IMG/VR virus record: IMGVR_UViG_3300010398_000010
Span: 1-64,000 of that record
Direction: 5' to 3' (one strand)
DNA length: 64,000 nt
DNA from: a virus
Taxonomy: Duplodnaviria > Caudoviricetes
Part shown: positions 6,179 to 14,684 of the stretch, one piece after another
Layout: the number at the start of each line of letters is the position of its first letter
How positions within the stretch are numbered: position 1 is the first letter of the stretch
The notes under the pieces: model-generated
What the model was told of the DNA's origin: nothing
Database searches by the model: none
What the model saw: the letters and a program-made list of their open reading frames with translations, nothing else
Program-made: the position numbers and the translations under genes

Positions 6179-8290
6179 ATGCTCGGCTGGGATCCGGATG
6201 AGCAGGCGTGGCGGGCGGACTGGGATCCGGCGAAGCACCCGCGGGTGCTGCACGGCGCGCACGGTGGCCAGTTCGCTCATGTGCCGGGCTCGGGCGCGTC
6301 GGTGCCCAGCGGCGCGGCCGGGGGCAAACGGACCGTCGCGGAGATCTACGCCGACGTTGGCGCGTGGGCCGGGATCCTTGAGGCGCAAGCCGACAACGCC
6401 CCGGATCTCGGTTACGGCAGCATCGGCAAGGACATCGCGGACGCGGCTGAGCATCTGCGGTGGGCTGAGCGGGTGATGGCCAAGGGCGACGATAGCTCGT
6501 TCGCCTTGGCGGCCAAGTACGTCGGTGAGGCCGGGATCCTGGCCGACCGCGGCGGGGTCGAGGGCGCAGGCGACCGGCTGCGCGACCTTGAGAGCGAGAT
6601 CATCGAGGCCACGCCAGAGTCCCCGCTCGGCGGCGAGTTTAAGGCGGTGCAGGATGTCACCGCCAAGGGGTCAAAGATCGTCCCGGATCTGCTCGGCGGC
6701 GGGCGGTCGGCGTGGGACGGCAAGACCGGCGTTGAGGACTACCTCGACAACCCAAACGCGATCGCTGAGACCGACTGGTACGGGCAGATCAACTACACCA
6801 CCGATGAGGCCAAGAGCCTCGATGCGGCGATGGGCGACAAGGGGCCGATTCACAACGCCGCAGCCTGGTCGGTGCCGCTGCATGAACTGATCCACGCGAC
6901 GATCGGCGGGACCGAGGCTGAGCGGATCAAGGCGCACGATGAGGCGGTCAAGGGGCTGCGCGGTGGCCAAGACCTGACCGGCGACTGGTCGACGCTGATG
7001 GATTGGTCGAACAGCGACGTAGACCGCAACCGCGACCGGGGCACGGCCGGGCCGTGGTGGCACACGCTCGCGCAGATCAACGAGCCCGAACCGGAGCAGT
7101 ACCAGGTGAGCCAGGCTCACGCCGACTGGCTGGCCTCGCACGGCTACCTCGACAAGAACGGCGATCAGTACCGGCTGTCCGCCAAGGGGCTCGCGGCGAC
7201 CACGCCGGTCACCCGCGAGACCCCCGCCGATGGGCGCGACGACTACCAAGAGCCCAGCGTGCAGGCGATCGAAGAGGGGTTCACGGAGCTAGGCACGATT
7301 CAGCACGCCCCAGAGTTTTTCGACCGGATGGGCATCGGGGACCGGCCGACTGACATGATCGCGGAACGCCCGGCTGACAAGCCCGACCTGAACATCCAAG
7401 CCAAGGTGATCAAGCAGTTGCATGAGTTGCGGACGCGCACCCACGCTGAGGGGTTCACTATCGCGATGAAGGCGGTCCGCGACGGCAAGCCGGACGCGGC
7501 CAAGGCCGAACTCGACCGGATGATCTCGGCCTATGAGGGGACCGACCTCAAGTGGGCGATCGCGAACGTCAAGGACGCGATTGACTCGATGTACCGCCGG
7601 CCGGTCGATAACCCGGAGTACAAGAAGCGGCAGACGGCGATGATCTCGGCGTTCAGCCGCGAGTCTGACCTGATCCGCAACCGGGTCTACGGCCCCGCCG
7701 CCCCGGGCAGGCTCAACGACGCGACGCAGCTGACCAAGTTGATGCAGGCGATGGCCCGCGCGGCGAACGACGTTGACGCCGAGGACTTCGCGGGCGCGGC
7801 CGAGGAACTTGCCCGGCTCGATCACAGCGGTGATACGGAGTACGCGAAAGACGCGGTGAAGCTGCGCGCGCAGCTGGTCGACGTGCTCGCGACGAACACG
7901 TCCAAGCGGGCGACGATGAGCGAGTATGCCCGCCGCCTGCAAGGCGCGGACCGGATCATCAACGGGTCGGCGTGGGGCCACTACCCGCAGGAGACCGCGC
8001 AGGCGTTGCGGTGGGCGCAGGCGGTCGCGGTGGCCGAACAGCCGCCCCTGCACGGCGAGGCGCTGCTCAAGCGGGTCACCGAGATCTCCGATGAGGTCAA
8101 CCGGGAGGGCACCGCCTACAAGCTCAAGATCATGGCGCGGCAGGCCGCACGAGCGGCGGGGCTCACCGACCCGAACCCGGCGAGTCTGGCGCAGGCCGAG
8201 AACTCGATCCGTAAGAACTGGGTGGACGGCGGCGCGTCGCTCGCGTTCGATCTGGCGACCCAGGCGGCCAAGAACGGGGCGGCGAAATGA
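6179..8290 (+). CDS. tagged head-associated protein with zincin metallopeptidase domain
   Basis: N-terminal WDPAKHPRVLHGAHGGQF tag; HELIH (6881-6895) plus downstream EEGFTE (7271-7288). Confidence 0.8.
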   Translation: MLGWDPDEQAWRADWDPAKHPRVLHGAHGGQFAHVPGSGASVPSGAAGGKRTVAEIYADVGAWAGILEAQADNAPDLGYGSIGKDIADAAEHLRWAERVMAKGDDSSFALAAKYVGEAGILADRGGVEGAGDRLRDLESEIIEATPESPLGGEFKAVQDVTAKGSKIVPDLLGGGRSAWDGKTGVEDYLDNPNAIAETDWYGQINYTTDEAKSLDAAMGDKGPIHNAAAWSVPLHELIHATIGGTEAERIKAHDEAVKGLRGGQDLTGDWSTLMDWSNSDVDRNRDRGTAGPWWHTLAQINEPEPEQYQVSQAHADWLASHGYLDKNGDQYRLSAKGLAATTPVTRETPADGRDDYQEPSVQAIEEGFTELGTIQHAPEFFDRMGIGDRPTDMIAERPADKPDLNIQAKVIKQLHELRTRTHAEGFTIAMKAVRDGKPDAAKAELDRMISAYEGTDLKWAIANVKDAIDSMYRRPVDNPEYKKRQTAMISAFSRESDLIRNRVYGPAAPGRLNDATQLTKLMQAMARAANDVDAEDFAGAAEELARLDHSGDTEYAKDAVKLRAQLVDVLATNTSKRATMSEYARRLQGADRIINGSAWGHYPQETAQALRWAQAVAVAEQPPLHGEALLKRVTEISDEVNREGTAYKLKIMARQAARAAGLTDPNPASLAQAENSIRKNWVDGGASLAFDLATQAAKNGAAK

Positions 8291-8475
8291 TCACTCTCGG
8301 CGTCACCCCGGACGGCAAGAAGGCTTACGCGGTGCTCGCGCAGGTGAACGGCAAGACGGTCAGCCCGCAGGCCGCGCTGGCTCACCTGGCTCAACTGGCG
8401 GATGAGTCCGAAACGACGGCGGGACTACATGAGGTGCAGGACGTGGCCCGGATCGTGCGACGGCTGAGGGGGTGA
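8287..8475 (+). CDS. small hypothetical protein coupled to the metallopeptidase gene
   Basis: 62 aa; ATGA overlap with the upstream stop. Confidence 0.7.
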   Translation: MITLGVTPDGKKAYAVLAQVNGKTVSPQAALAHLAQLADESETTAGLHEVQDVARIVRRLRG

Positions 8476-12667: not shown

Positions 12668-14684
12668 CGGCAAGTGGATCAGCGCGGACGCGGCCGGGCA
12701 CCTCGCCGGGCGGCGGGTCGTCGGCCGCCACACCAGCGGCCGGGACGTGGTCGGCCACTTCGACGCCAAGCGCAAGACCGTCACCCCCCCGGGCGGCAAG
12801 CCCGTCCCGGTGCAGCACGTGCGGCAGCCGACCGACGAAACGATCACCCCCGCCGGCAAGATCAAGGCCGGGGATCACATCAGCCTCGCCAACGGTCAGT
12901 GGCAGGTCGGCAAGGTCGAAACAGCACCCGGCGACCCGGAAGGGAAGCTGCTCAAGCTGTCGCTGTACCGGCCGGGCAACAAGTCGCACACCAGCAGCGT
13001 GATCGGCCACCCGACGCGGACCGCGTACAAGGTGGTGTCCCGCACCGCCCCGGCCGAGGATCCGGGCGACGGGCACACGCCGTTTTTCGACAGTGTCCTC
13101 AAGGATCTGACCGACGCCGGCGTACCAGCCGCCGAGGCGTACAGCGCCGCGTGGGGGGTCATCCGCACCTACGCCGCCGGCGGCGGGCAGGTCCACCCCG
13201 ACACCCAGGCCAAGGCCGAGGACACGCTTGAGCGCCGCCGCGCCGCCGCCCGCCGCGGCGGGCCAGCCGAGGCCAGCCGGGCGCTGACGCACGAAAAGGT
13301 CGGCCACACCGGGCAAGGGCTCTGGCACGACCCCCACCGGCAGCTGCCCGCCTATATCCAGCACATCGCCAACGACCTGATCCAAGAGCGCGGCATGGAC
13401 GAATCCCGCGCCATCGCGACCGCCGTTGGCCGCTGCAAGGCGTGGTGCGCCGGCGGCGGCGGCGTCCACCCAGACACCAAGGCCAAAGCCTGCGCGGCGG
13501 TGGCCGAATGGGAACGGCTCAAGGCCAGCACACACGCGAGTAGGAGCGCCACCATGCCCGAACACGACGCTGACGGTCTTGACGCCAGCTGGGACAACCT
13601 CGATGACCTGCCCGACCTGACCGGCATCGACATGGCCGACATTGCCGCCGCCGAGGCCGACCTCGGCTGGGGCGACGGCAACCCGGAACCGGTCAGCCGC
13701 GCGGCCAAGCTGGGCAGCGGCGAGCGGTTCGCCGCGCTCAAGTCCAAGCTCGCCGCCCGGGGCGTCAAGGATCCCGGTGCCCTCGCCGCTCACATCGGCC
13801 GGCGCAAGTACGGCAAGCAGCGTTTCCACGCCCTCGCCACCGCCGCGCGCAAGCGCGCCACCCCGGCCGCAGCGGCGTCGCGGACCGGTGAACTGTTCCG
13901 CACCTACCCGCTTGAGGACTGCCGCATCTTGACCCGCGCCGAGGGCTCGGCGTCGGGAAGAGTAGTCGAGGCATACGCGGCAGTATTCGGCCAGCCCGCC
14001 GAGATCCGCGACCCCCAAGGCCACTACCTAGAAGAGATCCACCCGCAGGCGTTCGACGCCGCGCTCCGGTCGGCTCACCCCGATCACAACGGCGGGCTGT
14101 GGCGGGTCGCGGTCCTCTACAATCACGGGCTCACCGTCCACGGGTCACCAGCTGAACGGTTCTCGATGCCCGCCGGGCTCGCGCTCGACATCGTCCCCGA
14201 AGCGCGCGGCCTGCTGACCCGCACCGAATACGCCCAGACGCCGCTAGGCGAAGAGATCTTGGAGCTAGTGCGGATGGGCGCGCTGCGGTCGCAGAGCTTC
14301 ACCGGGGGCATCGGCCGGTCAGAACCGGGCCTGCGGGGACCGGGTGACAAGTACCGGCCGCAGGGCGGCGGGATCCTGCAACGCGTCCGCCGCTACGTGC
14401 TCGGCCTCCGCGAGTACGGGCTGACCCCGTTCCCCGCCTACTCGGGCGCCGAAGTGTGCGGCGTCCGGATGCAGCTTCCGGACGGCTACGAGCCGCCCGG
14501 GGAAATCGAGGGCGACGAAGGCATCCCCGAATGGGAACAGCAGTTCCTTGCCGAGGACGCCGCCGGCTACCCCGCCGAACAGGGGGACTCGCCCGCGTCC
14601 ACTGGTCACCGGCACTACCAGCTGGCCTCGGAAGAGGCGATGCGGCGGGCCGGGATCACCCTGCGCACCAACAGAGAGGACTGA
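12615..14684 (+). CDS. prohead (capsid maturation) protease, HK97 gp4/S78 family, with about 420-aa N-terminal multi-module extension
   Basis: GRVVEAYAAVF, EEIHPQAF, VLYNHG (His), ALRSQSF (Ser), LREYGLTPFPAY; immediately upstream of the capsid gene. Confidence 0.92.
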   Translation: MTEASRRFDPTEKRDPHSGKWISADAAGHLAGRRVVGRHTSGRDVVGHFDAKRKTVTPPGGKPVPVQHVRQPTDETITPAGKIKAGDHISLANGQWQVGKVETAPGDPEGKLLKLSLYRPGNKSHTSSVIGHPTRTAYKVVSRTAPAEDPGDGHTPFFDSVLKDLTDAGVPAAEAYSAAWGVIRTYAAGGGQVHPDTQAKAEDTLERRRAAARRGGPAEASRALTHEKVGHTGQGLWHDPHRQLPAYIQHIANDLIQERGMDESRAIATAVGRCKAWCAGGGGVHPDTKAKACAAVAEWERLKASTHASRSATMPEHDADGLDASWDNLDDLPDLTGIDMADIAAAEADLGWGDGNPEPVSRAAKLGSGERFAALKSKLAARGVKDPGALAAHIGRRKYGKQRFHALATAARKRATPAAAASRTGELFRTYPLEDCRILTRAEGSASGRVVEAYAAVFGQPAEIRDPQGHYLEEIHPQAFDAALRSAHPDHNGGLWRVAVLYNHGLTVHGSPAERFSMPAGLALDIVPEARGLLTRTEYAQTPLGEEILELVRMGALRSQSFTGGIGRSEPGLRGPGDKYRPQGGGILQRVRRYVLGLREYGLTPFPAYSGAEVCGVRMQLPDGYEPPGEIEGDEGIPEWEQQFLAEDAAGYPAEQGDSPASTGHRHYQLASEEAMRRAGITLRTNRED

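Follow-up and report, generated by a model that had tools for sequence, protein, structure and literature searches.

Large multi-module proteins that phages encode beside their portal, MuF and capsid genes, and that are predicted to enter the virion and then be injected, were described as polyvalent proteins by Iyer, Burroughs, Anand, de Souza and Aravind (2017, PMC5512222), who report unrelated modules, zincin-like peptidase modules and fusions to portal or MuF. The terms 'N-terminal motif', 'GRF' and 'linker' do not occur in the main text of that paper, and the passages on 'HPR' or 'motif' that were examined concern no tag of the kind analysed here. MuF-fused polymorphic toxins of temperate phages (Jamet et al. 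2017, PMC5576092; Bxa, PMC11699363) carry variable effector domains on a head-morphogenesis protein encoded 3' of the portal; neither paper mentions a motif, linker or cleavage separating carrier from toxin. In T4, the internal proteins IPI-III and Alt bear a capsid targeting sequence (CTS) and are cleaved by gp21 (Mullaney and Black 1996, as cited in PMC9024508; reviewed in PMC9026906).

The locus examined here shares these features of the polyvalent proteins and the effector arrangement of the MuF toxins. Its modules match no Pfam polyvalent-protein domain and, unlike MuF toxins, the window contains no Pfam MuF domain and no immunity gene was seen. The window (i.e. the whole 64,000-nt stretch analysed) is positions 1 to 64,000 of an 89,348-nt virus record (IMGVR_UViG_3300010398_000010) from an uncultured soil phage, an actinophage. 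Four large plus-strand ORFs (p1-p4) fill the ~8.5 kb from portal to capsid (Table 1), confirming the gene arrangement proposed in a sequence-only reading of this DNA, with PF04860 and PF05065 matches on the flanking genes. This arrangement suggests, short of proof, that the encoded modules may enter the virus head and be separated inside it by the head protease. That these are head-internal cargo genes of the polyvalent-protein kind, with the tag and cleavage scheme set out below, is an explanation that may equally prove right or wrong.

Table 1. Positions of genes, tags and candidate sites in the window (in motifs, a slash follows the Arg)
Feature	Position	Strand	Basis or remark
Portal protein, 499 aa	4659..6158	+	PF04860 1.1e-16, phrog_12
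p1, 703 aa: short leader, tag, module with zincin-like HExxH	6179..8290	+	ORF
Tag 1, WDPAKHPRVLHGAHGGQF, long-loop subtype, after WR/AD	6221..6274	+	strict pattern
p1 HELIH motif, aa 235-239	6881..6895	+	kept in 3-4 relatives at ~30% identity
p2, 805 aa: four tag-headed all-helical modules	8483..10900	+	AF2 model
Tag 2, FDPAEARGYHGQW, after IGR/	8558..8596	+	strict pattern
Tag 3, WDELLHPRDPSGKW, after ARR/GV	9011..9052	+	strict pattern; inside low-pLDDT stretch 153-183
Tag 4, FNPHEPRDPAGKW, after AER/A	9509..9547	+	strict pattern; low pLDDT 339-348
Tag 5, YNPHEPRDPSGKW, after LLR/AISH	10181..10219	+	strict pattern; low pLDDT 566-573
p3, 532 aa: leader, tag, Pro-rich linkers, C-terminal kinase-like module	10812..12410	+	PF00454
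Tag 6, FDPHELRDAHGKW, after AAR/	10941..10979	+	strict pattern
p4, 689 aa, HK97-type prohead protease at C-terminal part	12615..14684	+	PF04586 8.5e-9, TIGR01543, phrog_80
Tag 7, FDPTEKRDPHSGKW, on protease protein, after SRR/	12636..12677	+	strict pattern
Candidate p4 self-processing site R310-S311, HASR/SATM	13542..13547	+	conserved in relatives
p4 Peptidase_S78 domain, aa 441-567	13935..14315	+	Pfam match
Major capsid protein, 497 aa, N-terminal delta-like domain	14690..16183	+	PF05065 6.2e-25
Predicted capsid maturation site R186/S187, GLRAAQR/SLTLGTASGG	15245..15250	+	invariant in 9 relatives
168-aa basic coiled-coil protein with eighth, variant tag	29276..29782	+	homologues in L047, L045
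Tag 8, variant, FNPNHAPPGSAAGGQF, after AER/	29294..29341	+	loose pattern; conserved in relatives

The portal was 60-64% identical to its counterparts in the relatives L037, L038 and L041, the start of p3 overlapped the end of p2 by 89 nt, and the capsid ORF, with a GTG start preceded by GAGAGGA, matched the capsid of PDB 9lw6 (4.9e-47). The gene for the 168-aa protein lies directly 5' of the tail assembly chaperone (phrog_344, 29799-30230); in L045, the homologous gene is found upstream of the protease, within the head-cargo region.

The tag and the modules behind it

The tag is a linear motif of 13-18 residues (i.e. aromatic-[DN]-[PE]-x-E-(H)-P-R-(D)-x-x-G-[KQR]-[WF]). Its second half is probably a tiny beta hairpin, and a beta bridge links the invariant Arg with the final Trp of Tag 4 in the AF2 model. 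A six-frame search of the whole 89,348-nt record with the strict pattern returned seven matches only, all on the plus strand between 6221 and 12636, and none in the reversed sequence; these are the seven copies listed in the sequence-only reading, identical in position and sequence. The eighth copy of that reading (Tag 8) held up in part: both it and its preceding Arg are kept in relatives (SR/FNMNHAPPGSATGGQF in L047; AR/FNMNHAPAGTVLGGQF in L045), but it is a variant without the Arg of 'HPR', which is invariant in the other copies, and was found only with a loose pattern that also matches null sequence.

Several observations support the tag as a real element at the head of modules. The modules behind the window tags were mutually unrelated by BLASTP (E<=0.05), as had been claimed, except for a small helical unit duplicated within p4. 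Among relatives, homology blocks begin at tags, and modules have changed places, in some cases joining the protease or the portal: in L035, L038 and L042 the protease ORF begins with module 1 of p2, and in L037 a tag and module are attached C-terminally to the portal. The tblastn homology begins at Tag 2 (query aa 25-26) in 5/7 loci of relatives, and, whereas N-terminal p4 modules are exchanged between relatives, the core (aa ~220-683) retains 46-59% identity in every one. In AF2 models, tags and their preceding Arg lie in low-pLDDT linkers with confident folds directly after them. In p2 (mean pLDDT 71.6), residues 45-135, 189-290, 382-565 and 626-795 are modelled with confidence and the tags fall in the low-confidence stretches between these blocks, and in p4 a pLDDT of <50 at aa 1-18 precedes a beta domain at aa 21-70 (block-mean pLDDT 91-95). 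The AF2 domain map of p4 runs from the tag through two beta units, two small helical units (the copies), an acidic linker and a basic helical unit to the protease.

Description of the tagged effectors as enzymes was overstated. An enzyme fold is not recognisable in the majority of window modules, and only p1 and p3 look enzymatic: HE[LM][IL]H is retained by p1 homologues in L042, L041, L035 and L036, p1 itself having no match in Pfam, PHROG or NCBIfam, and p3 gave a sub-threshold match to PF00454 PI3_PI4_kinase (2.5e-5, 24.7 bits; cut-off 27.1). The helical p2, whose last module is modelled as a long coiled coil with hydrophobic helices, could be structural (e.g. a scaffold or ejection channel), which, like the scarcity of enzyme folds, counts against the cargo explanation.

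A 32-position tag profile was searched against 1.84 billion protein clusters (E<=1e-3) and matched 2,936, with up to 20 copies per protein and some tagged proteins of 5,000-7,000 aa carrying 17-20 tags. In the top 150 multi-tag proteins, the tags sit ahead of domain-sized modules and not behind them: the first tag is at a median of aa 62, the median spacing is 250 aa and the protein ends <=60 aa after a tag in only 2/150. Tag-bearing proteins contain ART-PolyVal, InPase, MuF (4/37 proteins), GNAT, NUDIX, 2H and TopoIB domains, all hallmarks of the polyvalent and MuF effectors of phages. Tagged proteins also include gp67 of Gordonia phage GodonK and gp58 of Microbacterium phage Leaf. No description of the tag was found in Pfam, NCBIfam, PDB entries or the papers located; it is widespread yet apparently undescribed.

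The preceding Arg and candidate cut sites

An Arg was present 1-5 positions ahead of the aromatic anchor in 8/8 window tags and at -1 in 4/8, against backgrounds in these proteins of 0.325 for 'within 5' and 0.076 for '-1'; the corresponding chances (~1e-4 and ~2e-3) are our own arithmetic on related copies, which are not independent trials. The claim of an Arg shortly before each tag also held in a clade of 14 relatives (capsid 74-85% identical), with an Arg <=5 residues upstream in 35/36 tags and at -1 or -2 in 25/36 (0.144 expected). Spacing between Arg and tag varies from -1 to -5 in this clade, a variability more in keeping with a separate element than with a piece of the tag itself. The S78-positive clades A and B1 both have a pre-tag Arg, whereas clades without detectable S78 have K or L-x-E-A. 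The pre-tag residue differs between other phage lineages (K, A, D, E, L, F), each using one of its own, as expected for a lineage-specific processing site. In 114 multi-tag proteins, the three residues at -1 to -3 were protein-specific (0.911 versus 0.662 when shuffled, z = 22.5), a signal that fell to z = 2.7 at -10 to -12 and of which some could stem from concerted evolution of tag cassettes in one genome. The Arg type of the window is rare among multi-tag proteins.

The similar capsid site noted earlier, AAQR/SL at Arg186, is present, and an Arg occupies the aligned position in 9lw6 (EVR/AMGL) and in a 32%-identical prophage capsid (EMR/GMTT). By analogy with HK97, R186/S187 would be the maturation cut; it resembles the HK97 K103/S104 junction, 'SLGSDADSAGSLIQP'. 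In p4, R310 shows no variation among 12 sequences, in which S311 is conserved to at least 90%; both residues lie within a low-pLDDT linker (308-340; AF2), and A-x-R/S-x-T is common to this site and that of the capsid. Further along p4, [VA][SQ]R occurs ahead of the next unit and A[AS]R ahead of the S78 domain. The N503-H504-G505 and Q560-S561-F562-T563-G564-G565 stretches are invariant in relatives and are predicted to contain the catalytic His and Ser. R222 of p4, another proposed protease junction, is not conserved.

A P5-P2 matrix built from the tag junctions did not single out capsid R186 (0.44 bits, ~6th of 34 Arg) and gave higher scores to unrelated helical Arg sites, so that the feature common to junctions and capsid site is little more than 'Arg' (i.e. 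P1 = Arg and a loose small or hydrophobic P3 only). The S78 head protease is a plausible candidate for cleavage at Arg. The cargo interpretation of the sequence-only reading is sustained in part, by the module-leading tag, shuffling, linker placement, conserved Arg, lineage-specific pre-tag residues and the invariant A-x-R/S sites of capsid and protease, and weakened by the matrix result for R186 and the unconserved R222.

Proposed mechanism and alternatives

Regarding packaging, cleavage, the cutting enzyme, the tag partner and delivery, we infer the following scheme. The tagged proteins are quite probably virion-internal cargo, each a putative string of independently folding, freely exchangeable modules, every one headed by a tag. 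The tag would bring its module into, or hold it in, the assembling prohead by way of a partner common to many tailed phages; this role as a loading or retention signal is put forward tentatively, slightly short of an even call. An Arg 1-5 residues upstream would be where the HK97-type (S78) prohead protease encoded by the phage cuts, a proposal for and against which the evidence is evenly balanced. After assembly, the protease would trim short leaders and separate modules, and would also cut itself (R310/S) and the capsid delta domain (R186/S). Each freed module would begin at its tag or one residue earlier and exit with the DNA at infection.

Docking without cleavage, in which the tag and its lineage-specific N-terminal flank form one extended short linear motif, the module partner is phage-specific (portal, capsid interior, scaffold/delta domain or protease) and multi-module proteins stay intact, is unlikely. 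The Arg is also retained before tags 6-25 residues from the protein start, where there is no module to remove, and so could belong to such a motif; fixed spacing of the pre-tag residue in most other multi-tag proteins, the failure of the junction matrix to recognise the capsid site and the disposition of tags as disordered peptides with linkers on both sides, like docking motifs, are also compatible with docking. The variable spacing in the clade argues against it, as does the recurrence of A-x-R/S, tag-free and invariant, in the capsid and the disordered protease linker. A universal core with a hypervariable flank would moreover be odd as a single binding epitope, and the largest multi-tag proteins, if uncut, are hard to imagine working in the head. 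Carrier-free tagged proteins (p2, p3 and the 168-aa protein) would still need a route into the head if the tag acted after injection, as a motif directed at the host that attaches to a conserved component of the bacterium or to the end of the phage DNA, or that sets module lifetime, with loading by other means (e.g. fusion to portal, MuF or protease). Many modules do ride on such head proteins (portal in L037 and L062, MuF, protease), and the near-identity of the tag core across phages with very different head proteins would imply an equally conserved partner, such as DNA or a host protein. A cut at R/F would expose Phe, a potential N-degron, in 4/8 window copies (8558, 10941, 12636 and 29294), but at most clade junctions Ala, which is not an N-degron residue, would be exposed. 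With no homology of the tag to known host-binding motifs and no solved structure containing it, action after injection appears distinctly unlikely.

Processing by the zincin-like metallopeptidase of p1 instead of the prohead protease would follow the MPTase theme of Iyer et al. 2017, who predict processing by zincins (PMC5512222). The p1 HExxH is conserved in four relatives and an ATLF-like zincin lies inside a 4-tag protein (L015). However, in both L038 and L037 the portal-to-capsid region is complete and has tags preceded by Arg, while no cargo ORF of at least 200 aa encodes HExxH, indicating that the zincin is dispensable; every relative has the S78 protease, and no peptidase family of Pfam or NCBIfam matches p1, making this a very improbable explanation. 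It is most improbable that the tags are mainly recombination joints, i.e. conserved linkers for module swaps with no role in loading or cleavage, akin to the conserved pre-toxin motifs of polymorphic toxins. Such joints would account for homology breaks at tags, for module shuffling among close relatives and for tag-coding DNA copies that agree at up to 34/39 nt, but runs of <=39 nt are short for homologous recombination and, at 70% GC, the same codons would be expected in any case. Selection on the peptide is indicated by how strongly R, G and the terminal W/F are conserved in phages that are distant from one another and differ in composition, and recombination joints would leave the lineage-specific pre-tag residue unexplained.

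Comparison with known systems

Encapsulin cargo-loading peptides are short linear peptides that dock unrelated cargo inside an HK97-fold shell; they are usually C-terminal, have no link to proteolysis, differ in sequence and involve no portal or DNA. In giant phages of the SPN3US and phiKZ type, the prohead protease cleaves many head-internal proteins, including propeptide-bearing ejection proteins, at a motif specific to the lineage, and these proteins are ejected into the cell (PMC7411985, PMC10052503), as proposed here, but the protease family and cleavage motif are different and no shared cross-lineage tag is reported there. In P1, as here, the capsid protein has its own scaffold domain and the cargo genes adjoin the portal and protease genes, and N-terminal residues suffice to load the huge anti-restriction enzyme DarB into the head (2022, PMC9024508). 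The HPR tag is absent from P1 DarB, DarA, DdrA, DdrB and Ulx, and the experimentally defined DarB capsid-targeting signal, being without it, counts against the loading-tag reading; unlike the window tag, the P1 signal is not known as repeated or common to several phages. Zincin processing is proposed for polyvalent proteins in PMC5512222, whereas the evidence here leans to the S78 prohead protease.

Like the T4 CTS, the tag is a short peptide near the N-terminus of what would be head-internal injected proteins and is tied to a putative prohead-protease cut at a defined P1 residue. The two have no sequence similarity, and the tag recurs inside polyproteins, spans very different phage lineages and goes with S78 and not a T4-type protease. 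The CTS lies upstream of its cut and is removed, whereas the cut proposed here lies upstream of the tag, which would stay on the mature module.

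Tags and gene layout between portal and capsid

The virus record spans 89,348 nt at ~70% G+C, its first 64 kb being the window. An HK97-type head maturation layout is present, the S78 protease gene immediately preceding that of the PF05065 capsid protein, and four large ORFs (p1–p4, the last being the prohead protease protein) lie between portal and capsid. Translation of the capsid gene most likely starts at a GTG preceded by a GAGAGGA ribosome-binding site, giving a long N-terminal extension in which the PF05065 match starts only ~190 aa into the protein. Nucleotide similarity of cultured phages to the window was limited to ~110 nt of the portal gene, and tblastn of p1 and p3 against 50,697 phage records yielded zero matches.

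Genes of the head region and their supporting matches
Feature	Position (nt)	Strand	Length (aa)	Evidence
Large terminase	1651-3147	+		phrog_9
Portal	4659-6158	+		PF04860
p1	6179-8290	+	703	ORF
p2	8483-10900	+	805	ORF
p3	10812-12410	+	532	ORF
p4	12615-14684	+	689	Peptidase_S78, aa 441-567 (PF04586, 8.5e-9); TIGR01543; phrog_80
Major capsid protein	GTG start 14690	+	497	PF05065 (6.2e-25)

The sequence-only reading had placed seven copies of a short tag, the HPR tag, at the heads of modules in this region, and all seven positions proved correct. A strict pattern applied in six frames to the whole record returned the same seven copies only, as compared to 0 in the reversed sequence. The Arg of 'HPR' is missing from an eighth copy, at 29294, which only a noisy, loose pattern detected. 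Because relatives keep both this tag and the preceding Arg (SR/FNMNHAPPGSATGGQF in locus L047 and AR/FNMNHAPAGTVLGGQF in locus L045, a slash marking the proposed cut), it was counted as real; the L045 gene lies within the head-cargo region instead of neighbouring the tail chaperone. The Arg said to precede every tag was found 1–5 residues ahead of the aromatic anchor in 8/8 copies and immediately ahead in 4/8, against backgrounds of 0.325 and 0.076, respectively. BLASTP likewise bore out the mutual unrelatedness of the modules that follow the tags, with the exception of a small helical unit present twice within p4.

Several further features of this region were observed. The duplicated p4 unit (~45–60 aa; 13083-13217 and 13353-13490; ...GGGxVHPDTxAKA...WE.LKA) also occurs post-portal in large Streptomyces phage proteins annotated as ADP-ribosyltransferase, in a Microcystis phage, and in gp58 of the Microbacterium phages Leaf and Dewdrop; it is a widespread small head-cargo domain without a family name. 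The p3 ORF, in the +1 frame, shares its first 89 nt (10812-10900) with the 3' end of p2. No ATG, GTG or TTG occurs in the p3 frame from the p2 stop (10898-10900) to the p3 tag (10941), indicating either a p3 start inside p2 (ATG 10812 or 10833) or access by frameshifting, which would yield a p2-p3 fusion. The portal ends in ~80 Pro/Gly-rich residues that are probably disordered, and its C-terminus (6130-6158) reads ...GRSDIPFAEN, resembling the acidic D-I-P-F tail through which bacterial SSB recruits partner proteins. The capsid gene is directly followed (16349-19697) by a 702-aa fusion of a glycosyltransferase with an FkbM methyltransferase and by a further methyltransferase-like gene.

Module exchange among relatives and predicted structure

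Searches with the capsid protein recovered 14 related IMG/VR contigs (74–85% identity), whose portal-to-capsid regions contained 36 tags by the first pattern; a wider pattern gave a total of 45 for the clade. An Arg was present ≤5 residues upstream of the tag in 35/36 cases and at -1 or -2 in 25/36 as compared to an expected 0.144, the typical junction being x-x-R-(A)-F-[ND]-P. When the window proteins were searched against the loci of the relatives by tblastn, blocks of homology started at the tags; for p2, homology began at query residue 25–26 in 5/7 loci. Modules are shuffled, the first of p2 leading the protease ORF in L035, L038 and L042 and being internal in L041. Protease N-terminal modules are exchanged among the relatives whilst the core (aa ~220-683) is kept in all of them. 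The portal ORF of L037 (916 aa; L037:2574-5324) continues beyond the portal domain into a C-terminal extension with a tag (LSR/FDPSERRDFHGRW) and one additional module, which makes it a portal-fused cargo.

Variation was also seen within the protease ORFs. In L035, L036 and L040 the acidic linker and basic helical unit are swapped for another unit (...INDLPD.AFA.I.PGG.KD..GKT.PR..R.LP.HD.AHV..ALSR...), a module swap within the protease polyprotein. A conserved leader, M..DPW[VL]A[ED]QL.ALGL, stands ahead of the first tagged module in the protease ORFs of L035, L042, L043 and L044; the p4 of the window is without it and begins MTEASRR/FDP.

Enzyme-like features of the window proteins were few. 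The HExxH of p1 is conserved in its homologues in L042, L041, L035 and L036, and a kinase match of p3 fell below threshold. A role for the p1 zincin as a required processing enzyme was ruled against, since in L038 and L037 the complete cargo regions contain tags with their pre-tag Arg but no HExxH in any cargo ORF of ≥200 aa; the zincin is thus one more module. Pfam and NCBIfam searches of the window proteins matched none of the polyvalent enzyme domains (i.e. ART, MTase-helicase, MPTase, PBECR, 2H and others), these proteins had no recognisable toxin domain, and the MuF domain (PF04233) was absent from p1–p4 by Pfam. Comparison of p1 with the ESM Atlas produced weak leads, the sole MuF hint being a look-alike with a TM of 0.23.

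Structure predictions distinguished folded units from the stretches that carry the tags. The p4 model (12-sequence alignment) is composed of beta units, helical units and the protease, and had a mean pLDDT of 52.8. The leader and tag (aa 1-18) scored <50, whilst means for 10-residue blocks reached 91–95 in the beta domain after the tag (aa 21-70), and the protease domain was poorly predicted. Low-confidence linkers (214-225/229-235, 308-340, 351-369 and 410-460) hold R222, R310, R362 and R423. In the p2 model (mean pLDDT of 71.6), four confident all-helical blocks resembling generic helical bundles are separated by low-confidence stretches (1-25, 153-183, 339-348/356-360 and 566-573) that hold the pre-tag Arg and the tags. 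From these pLDDT patterns, the tag has the behaviour of a short linear motif located between modules that fold. In three p2 tags the invariant Arg was modelled as forming a beta bridge with the final Trp, suggesting that R-D-x-x-G-K-W may form a hairpin.

Residues preceding the tag and the head protease

Pre-tag residues vary by clade whilst the tag core is constant. The types observed were R(A) in the clade of the window, R-E in a second S78-bearing clade, V-E-K(x) in locus L032 and [LM]-x-E-[AS]-x in 110–134-kb IMG/VR contigs. The generality of this pattern was examined with 625 junctions from 114 proteins having at least four distinct junctions each, using junctions shuffled among proteins as the null. 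The best-shared residue at -1 to -3 accounted for 0.911 of a protein's junctions versus 0.662 +/- 0.011 after shuffling (z = 22.5), and the protein-specific signal faded with distance (z = 8.7 at -4 to -6, 3.5 at -7 to -9 and 2.7 at -10 to -12). Dominant types by protein were K (46), A (26) and D (10), followed by L, G, F, E and R (R = 2). These statistics and counts indicate that a lineage-specific element before a universal tag is general and that the Arg type of the window is rare.

Lineage-specific protease sites would have the appearance of this pre-tag pattern. The same constancy within a protein, with variation between lineages and a signal strongest next to the tag, could also arise from a docking motif with a lineage-specific extension or from partial homogenisation of tag cassettes. 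The idea that the pre-tag residue covaries between clades with the family of the protease was dropped from the argument because the K- and E-type clades gave no detectable protease. No S77, S78, S78_2, ClpP or PF05065 was detected by Pfam in the 110–134-kb 'L-x-E-A' records, searches of L032 ('V-E-K'), L015 and L023 for S78 and PF05065 gave no match, and a PHROGs search of the L020 and L009 head genes gave no recognition. As a separate observation, the [LM]-x-E-[AS]-x of the 110–134-kb contigs (L007, L009, L013, L020 and L021) resembles the (L or I)-x-E cut motif of T4 gp21.

Both clades with a detectable S78 protease use Arg. The predicted maturation site of the capsid protein, GLRAAQR186/SLTLGTASGG, where a cut would follow a basic residue at the putative delta/N-arm boundary, is invariant in nine relatives and resembles the HK97 K103/S104 junction. 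Alignment with the solved capsid 9lw6 (EVR/AMGL, E = 4.9e-47) and with a prophage capsid of 32% identity (EMR/GMTT) shows an Arg retained at this position in both. Within p4, R310 is invariant and S311 nearly so among relatives, both lying in a linker predicted to be disordered, and A-S-R/S-A-T mirrors the A-Q-R/S-L-T of the capsid. Nearly all relatives have [VA][SQ]R before the next unit and A[AS]R before the S78 domain, and 'AQR/' occurs at three of the relatives' tag junctions. The likening of the capsid site to the tag junctions held in part: an Arg and a loose P3 are shared at an invariant site, but a matrix of P5-P2 built from 35 junctions (27 without those of the window) and scored on every Arg of the capsid, portal, terminase and other proteins placed R186 only ~6th of 34 Arg, with unrelated helical sites preferred. 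As the matrix does not single out R186, the claim of shared features beyond the Arg and loose P3 was dropped. A further p4 junction proposed at R222 (ASR/ALTH) did not survive comparison, as it is not conserved and relatives read TATAS/TVHEP.

Loading of these proteins into the prohead followed by cleavage at the pre-tag Arg is the best reading of the data, and we give it roughly an even chance of being correct. A broader proposal, which we regard as possible but rather unlikely, is that the HPR tag would be a portable, near-universal 'cargo address' used by tailed phages, a hairpin-forming peptide of 14 residues bound by a conserved prohead component and preceded by the residue at which the protease cuts. 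Under this proposal the recogniser would most economically be the assemblin-fold prohead protease itself, and the lineage-specific upstream residue would be the cut site of that protease.

Spread of the tag and relation to known systems

A DNA pattern for HPRDxxGKW found 34 IMG/VR loci, ~30 of which carry the extended consensus in proteins of 500–1,800 aa with ≤7 copies each. In L020, tags fall at Pfam domain boundaries (aa 61 before a CCA-adding enzyme and HD unit, and aa 568 before DUF7178); tags accompany the polyvalent-protein domain InPase in L032 and an ATLF-like zincin in L015, and L004 encodes a fusion of tag, protease and capsid. A 32-position profile built from 104 tags was searched against 1.84 billion representative proteins, producing 2,936 matches at E<=1e-3 and 525 at E<=1e-10. 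The best matches, P0003 (7,334 aa, 20 tags) and P0004 (5,313 aa, 17 tags), are encoded on the same 409,570-bp NCBI contig. Their pre-tag consensus contains Phe (ATF/A, F/S), unlike every other type seen. Among the 150 best-scoring proteins (750 tags), the median position of the first tag was residue 62, the median spacing was 250 aa and the last tag was a median of 299 aa from the C-terminus, with only 2/150 ending ≤60 aa after a tag; tags head modules rather than trailing them.

Domains identified among 37 tag proteins were ART-PolyVal (8), DUF7178 (5), MuF (4), GNAT (4) and ADPrib_exo_Tox (4), together with NUDIX, 2H, histidine phosphatase and topoisomerase IB. These domains are hallmarks of polyvalent and MuF-linked effectors (Iyer et al. 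2017, PMC5512222; Jamet et al. 2017, PMC5576092). Source annotations of the tag proteins were 'hypothetical', 'SPP1 gp7 family' or 'GNAT', and no Pfam or NCBIfam model covered the tag, even in a 13-copy protein. For the typed multi-tag proteins a single exact locus, L062, was recovered. It encodes a 2,025-aa ORF (L062:1225-7302) that joins an intein-split Mu-type portal to a zeta-toxin kinase and a MuF domain, and ~2.5 kb downstream a 1,721-aa multi-tag protein with the pre-tag motif [FA]-[AV]-[VI]-D-P-[DE]; Pfam recognised no capsid or protease in this locus. Cultured carriers include the Gordonia phages GodonK and Phendrix, in which a 1,479-aa protein directly after the portal has a tag at ~aa 15-37, and Microbacterium phage Leaf, whose gp58 was found through a domain match; tblastn of cultured phages with 30-aa tag pieces was too insensitive and gave GodonK and Phendrix only. 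We know of no virion proteomics for GodonK, Phendrix or Leaf.

The opening minutes of an infection are determined by the head proteins injected with the DNA, by way of anti-defence, host takeover and cell-wall passage; to our knowledge, these proteins are known for only a few model phages. If the broader 'cargo address' proposal is true, virion-delivered effectors would be readable by sequence search alone in thousands of uncultured phages, the specificities of many prohead proteases would be predictable from pre-tag residues, and foreign proteins could be loaded into phage heads by adding a leader, site and tag. It would also explain how giant polyvalent proteins with up to 20 modules can work. 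For this phage, five genes would yield approximately nine separate head-internal products, among them the passengers carried by the maturation protease itself.

A module-leading tag with a pre-tag site was found described nowhere in our literature search. Full-text queries with the spelled-out motif, capsid-targeting and polyvalent-protein terms returned no description of the tag, no PDB chain containing it was found, and a search on PDB 9LW6-8 found no paper on the related capsid structure. The main text of PMC5512222 does not contain 'N-terminal motif', 'GRF' or 'linker', and none of its listed passages with 'HPR' or 'motif' deals with such a tag; the MuF toxin papers (PMC5576092; Bxa, PMC11699363) are silent on motifs or linkers.

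We conclude that the feature is real and forms part of the theme of polyvalent head-cargo proteins. Like the polyvalent proteins of Iyer et al. (2017, PMC5512222), the window proteins combine at least two unrelated domains per polypeptide (p2 and p4) and are phage-encoded among virion genes, here from portal to capsid. Enzyme domains of the kinds listed there occur on tag proteins elsewhere; the window proteins gave no Pfam or NCBIfam match to them and have the HExxH of p1 and the sub-threshold kinase match of p3. MuF polymorphic toxins (Jamet et al. 2017, PMC5576092) have an N-terminal MuF, which Pfam did not detect in p1–p4. P1 DarB was considered as an experimentally validated instance of the tag and rejected, as no tag was present in DarB, DarA, DdrA, DdrB, Ulx, Prt or Pro of P1. 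The closest mechanistic precedents are cleavage of the T4 CTS by gp21 and the targeting signal of P1 DarB. The T4 CTS has zero sequence similarity to the tag and is removed by cleavage downstream of it, whereas the candidate Arg lies upstream of a tag that can also be internal and would stay on after the putative cut; the T4 protease is of the gp21 type and that of the window of the Peptidase_S78/TIGR01543 HK97 type. Unlike both the T4 CTS and the P1 DarB signal, the tag is repeated within polyproteins and is common to different lineages.
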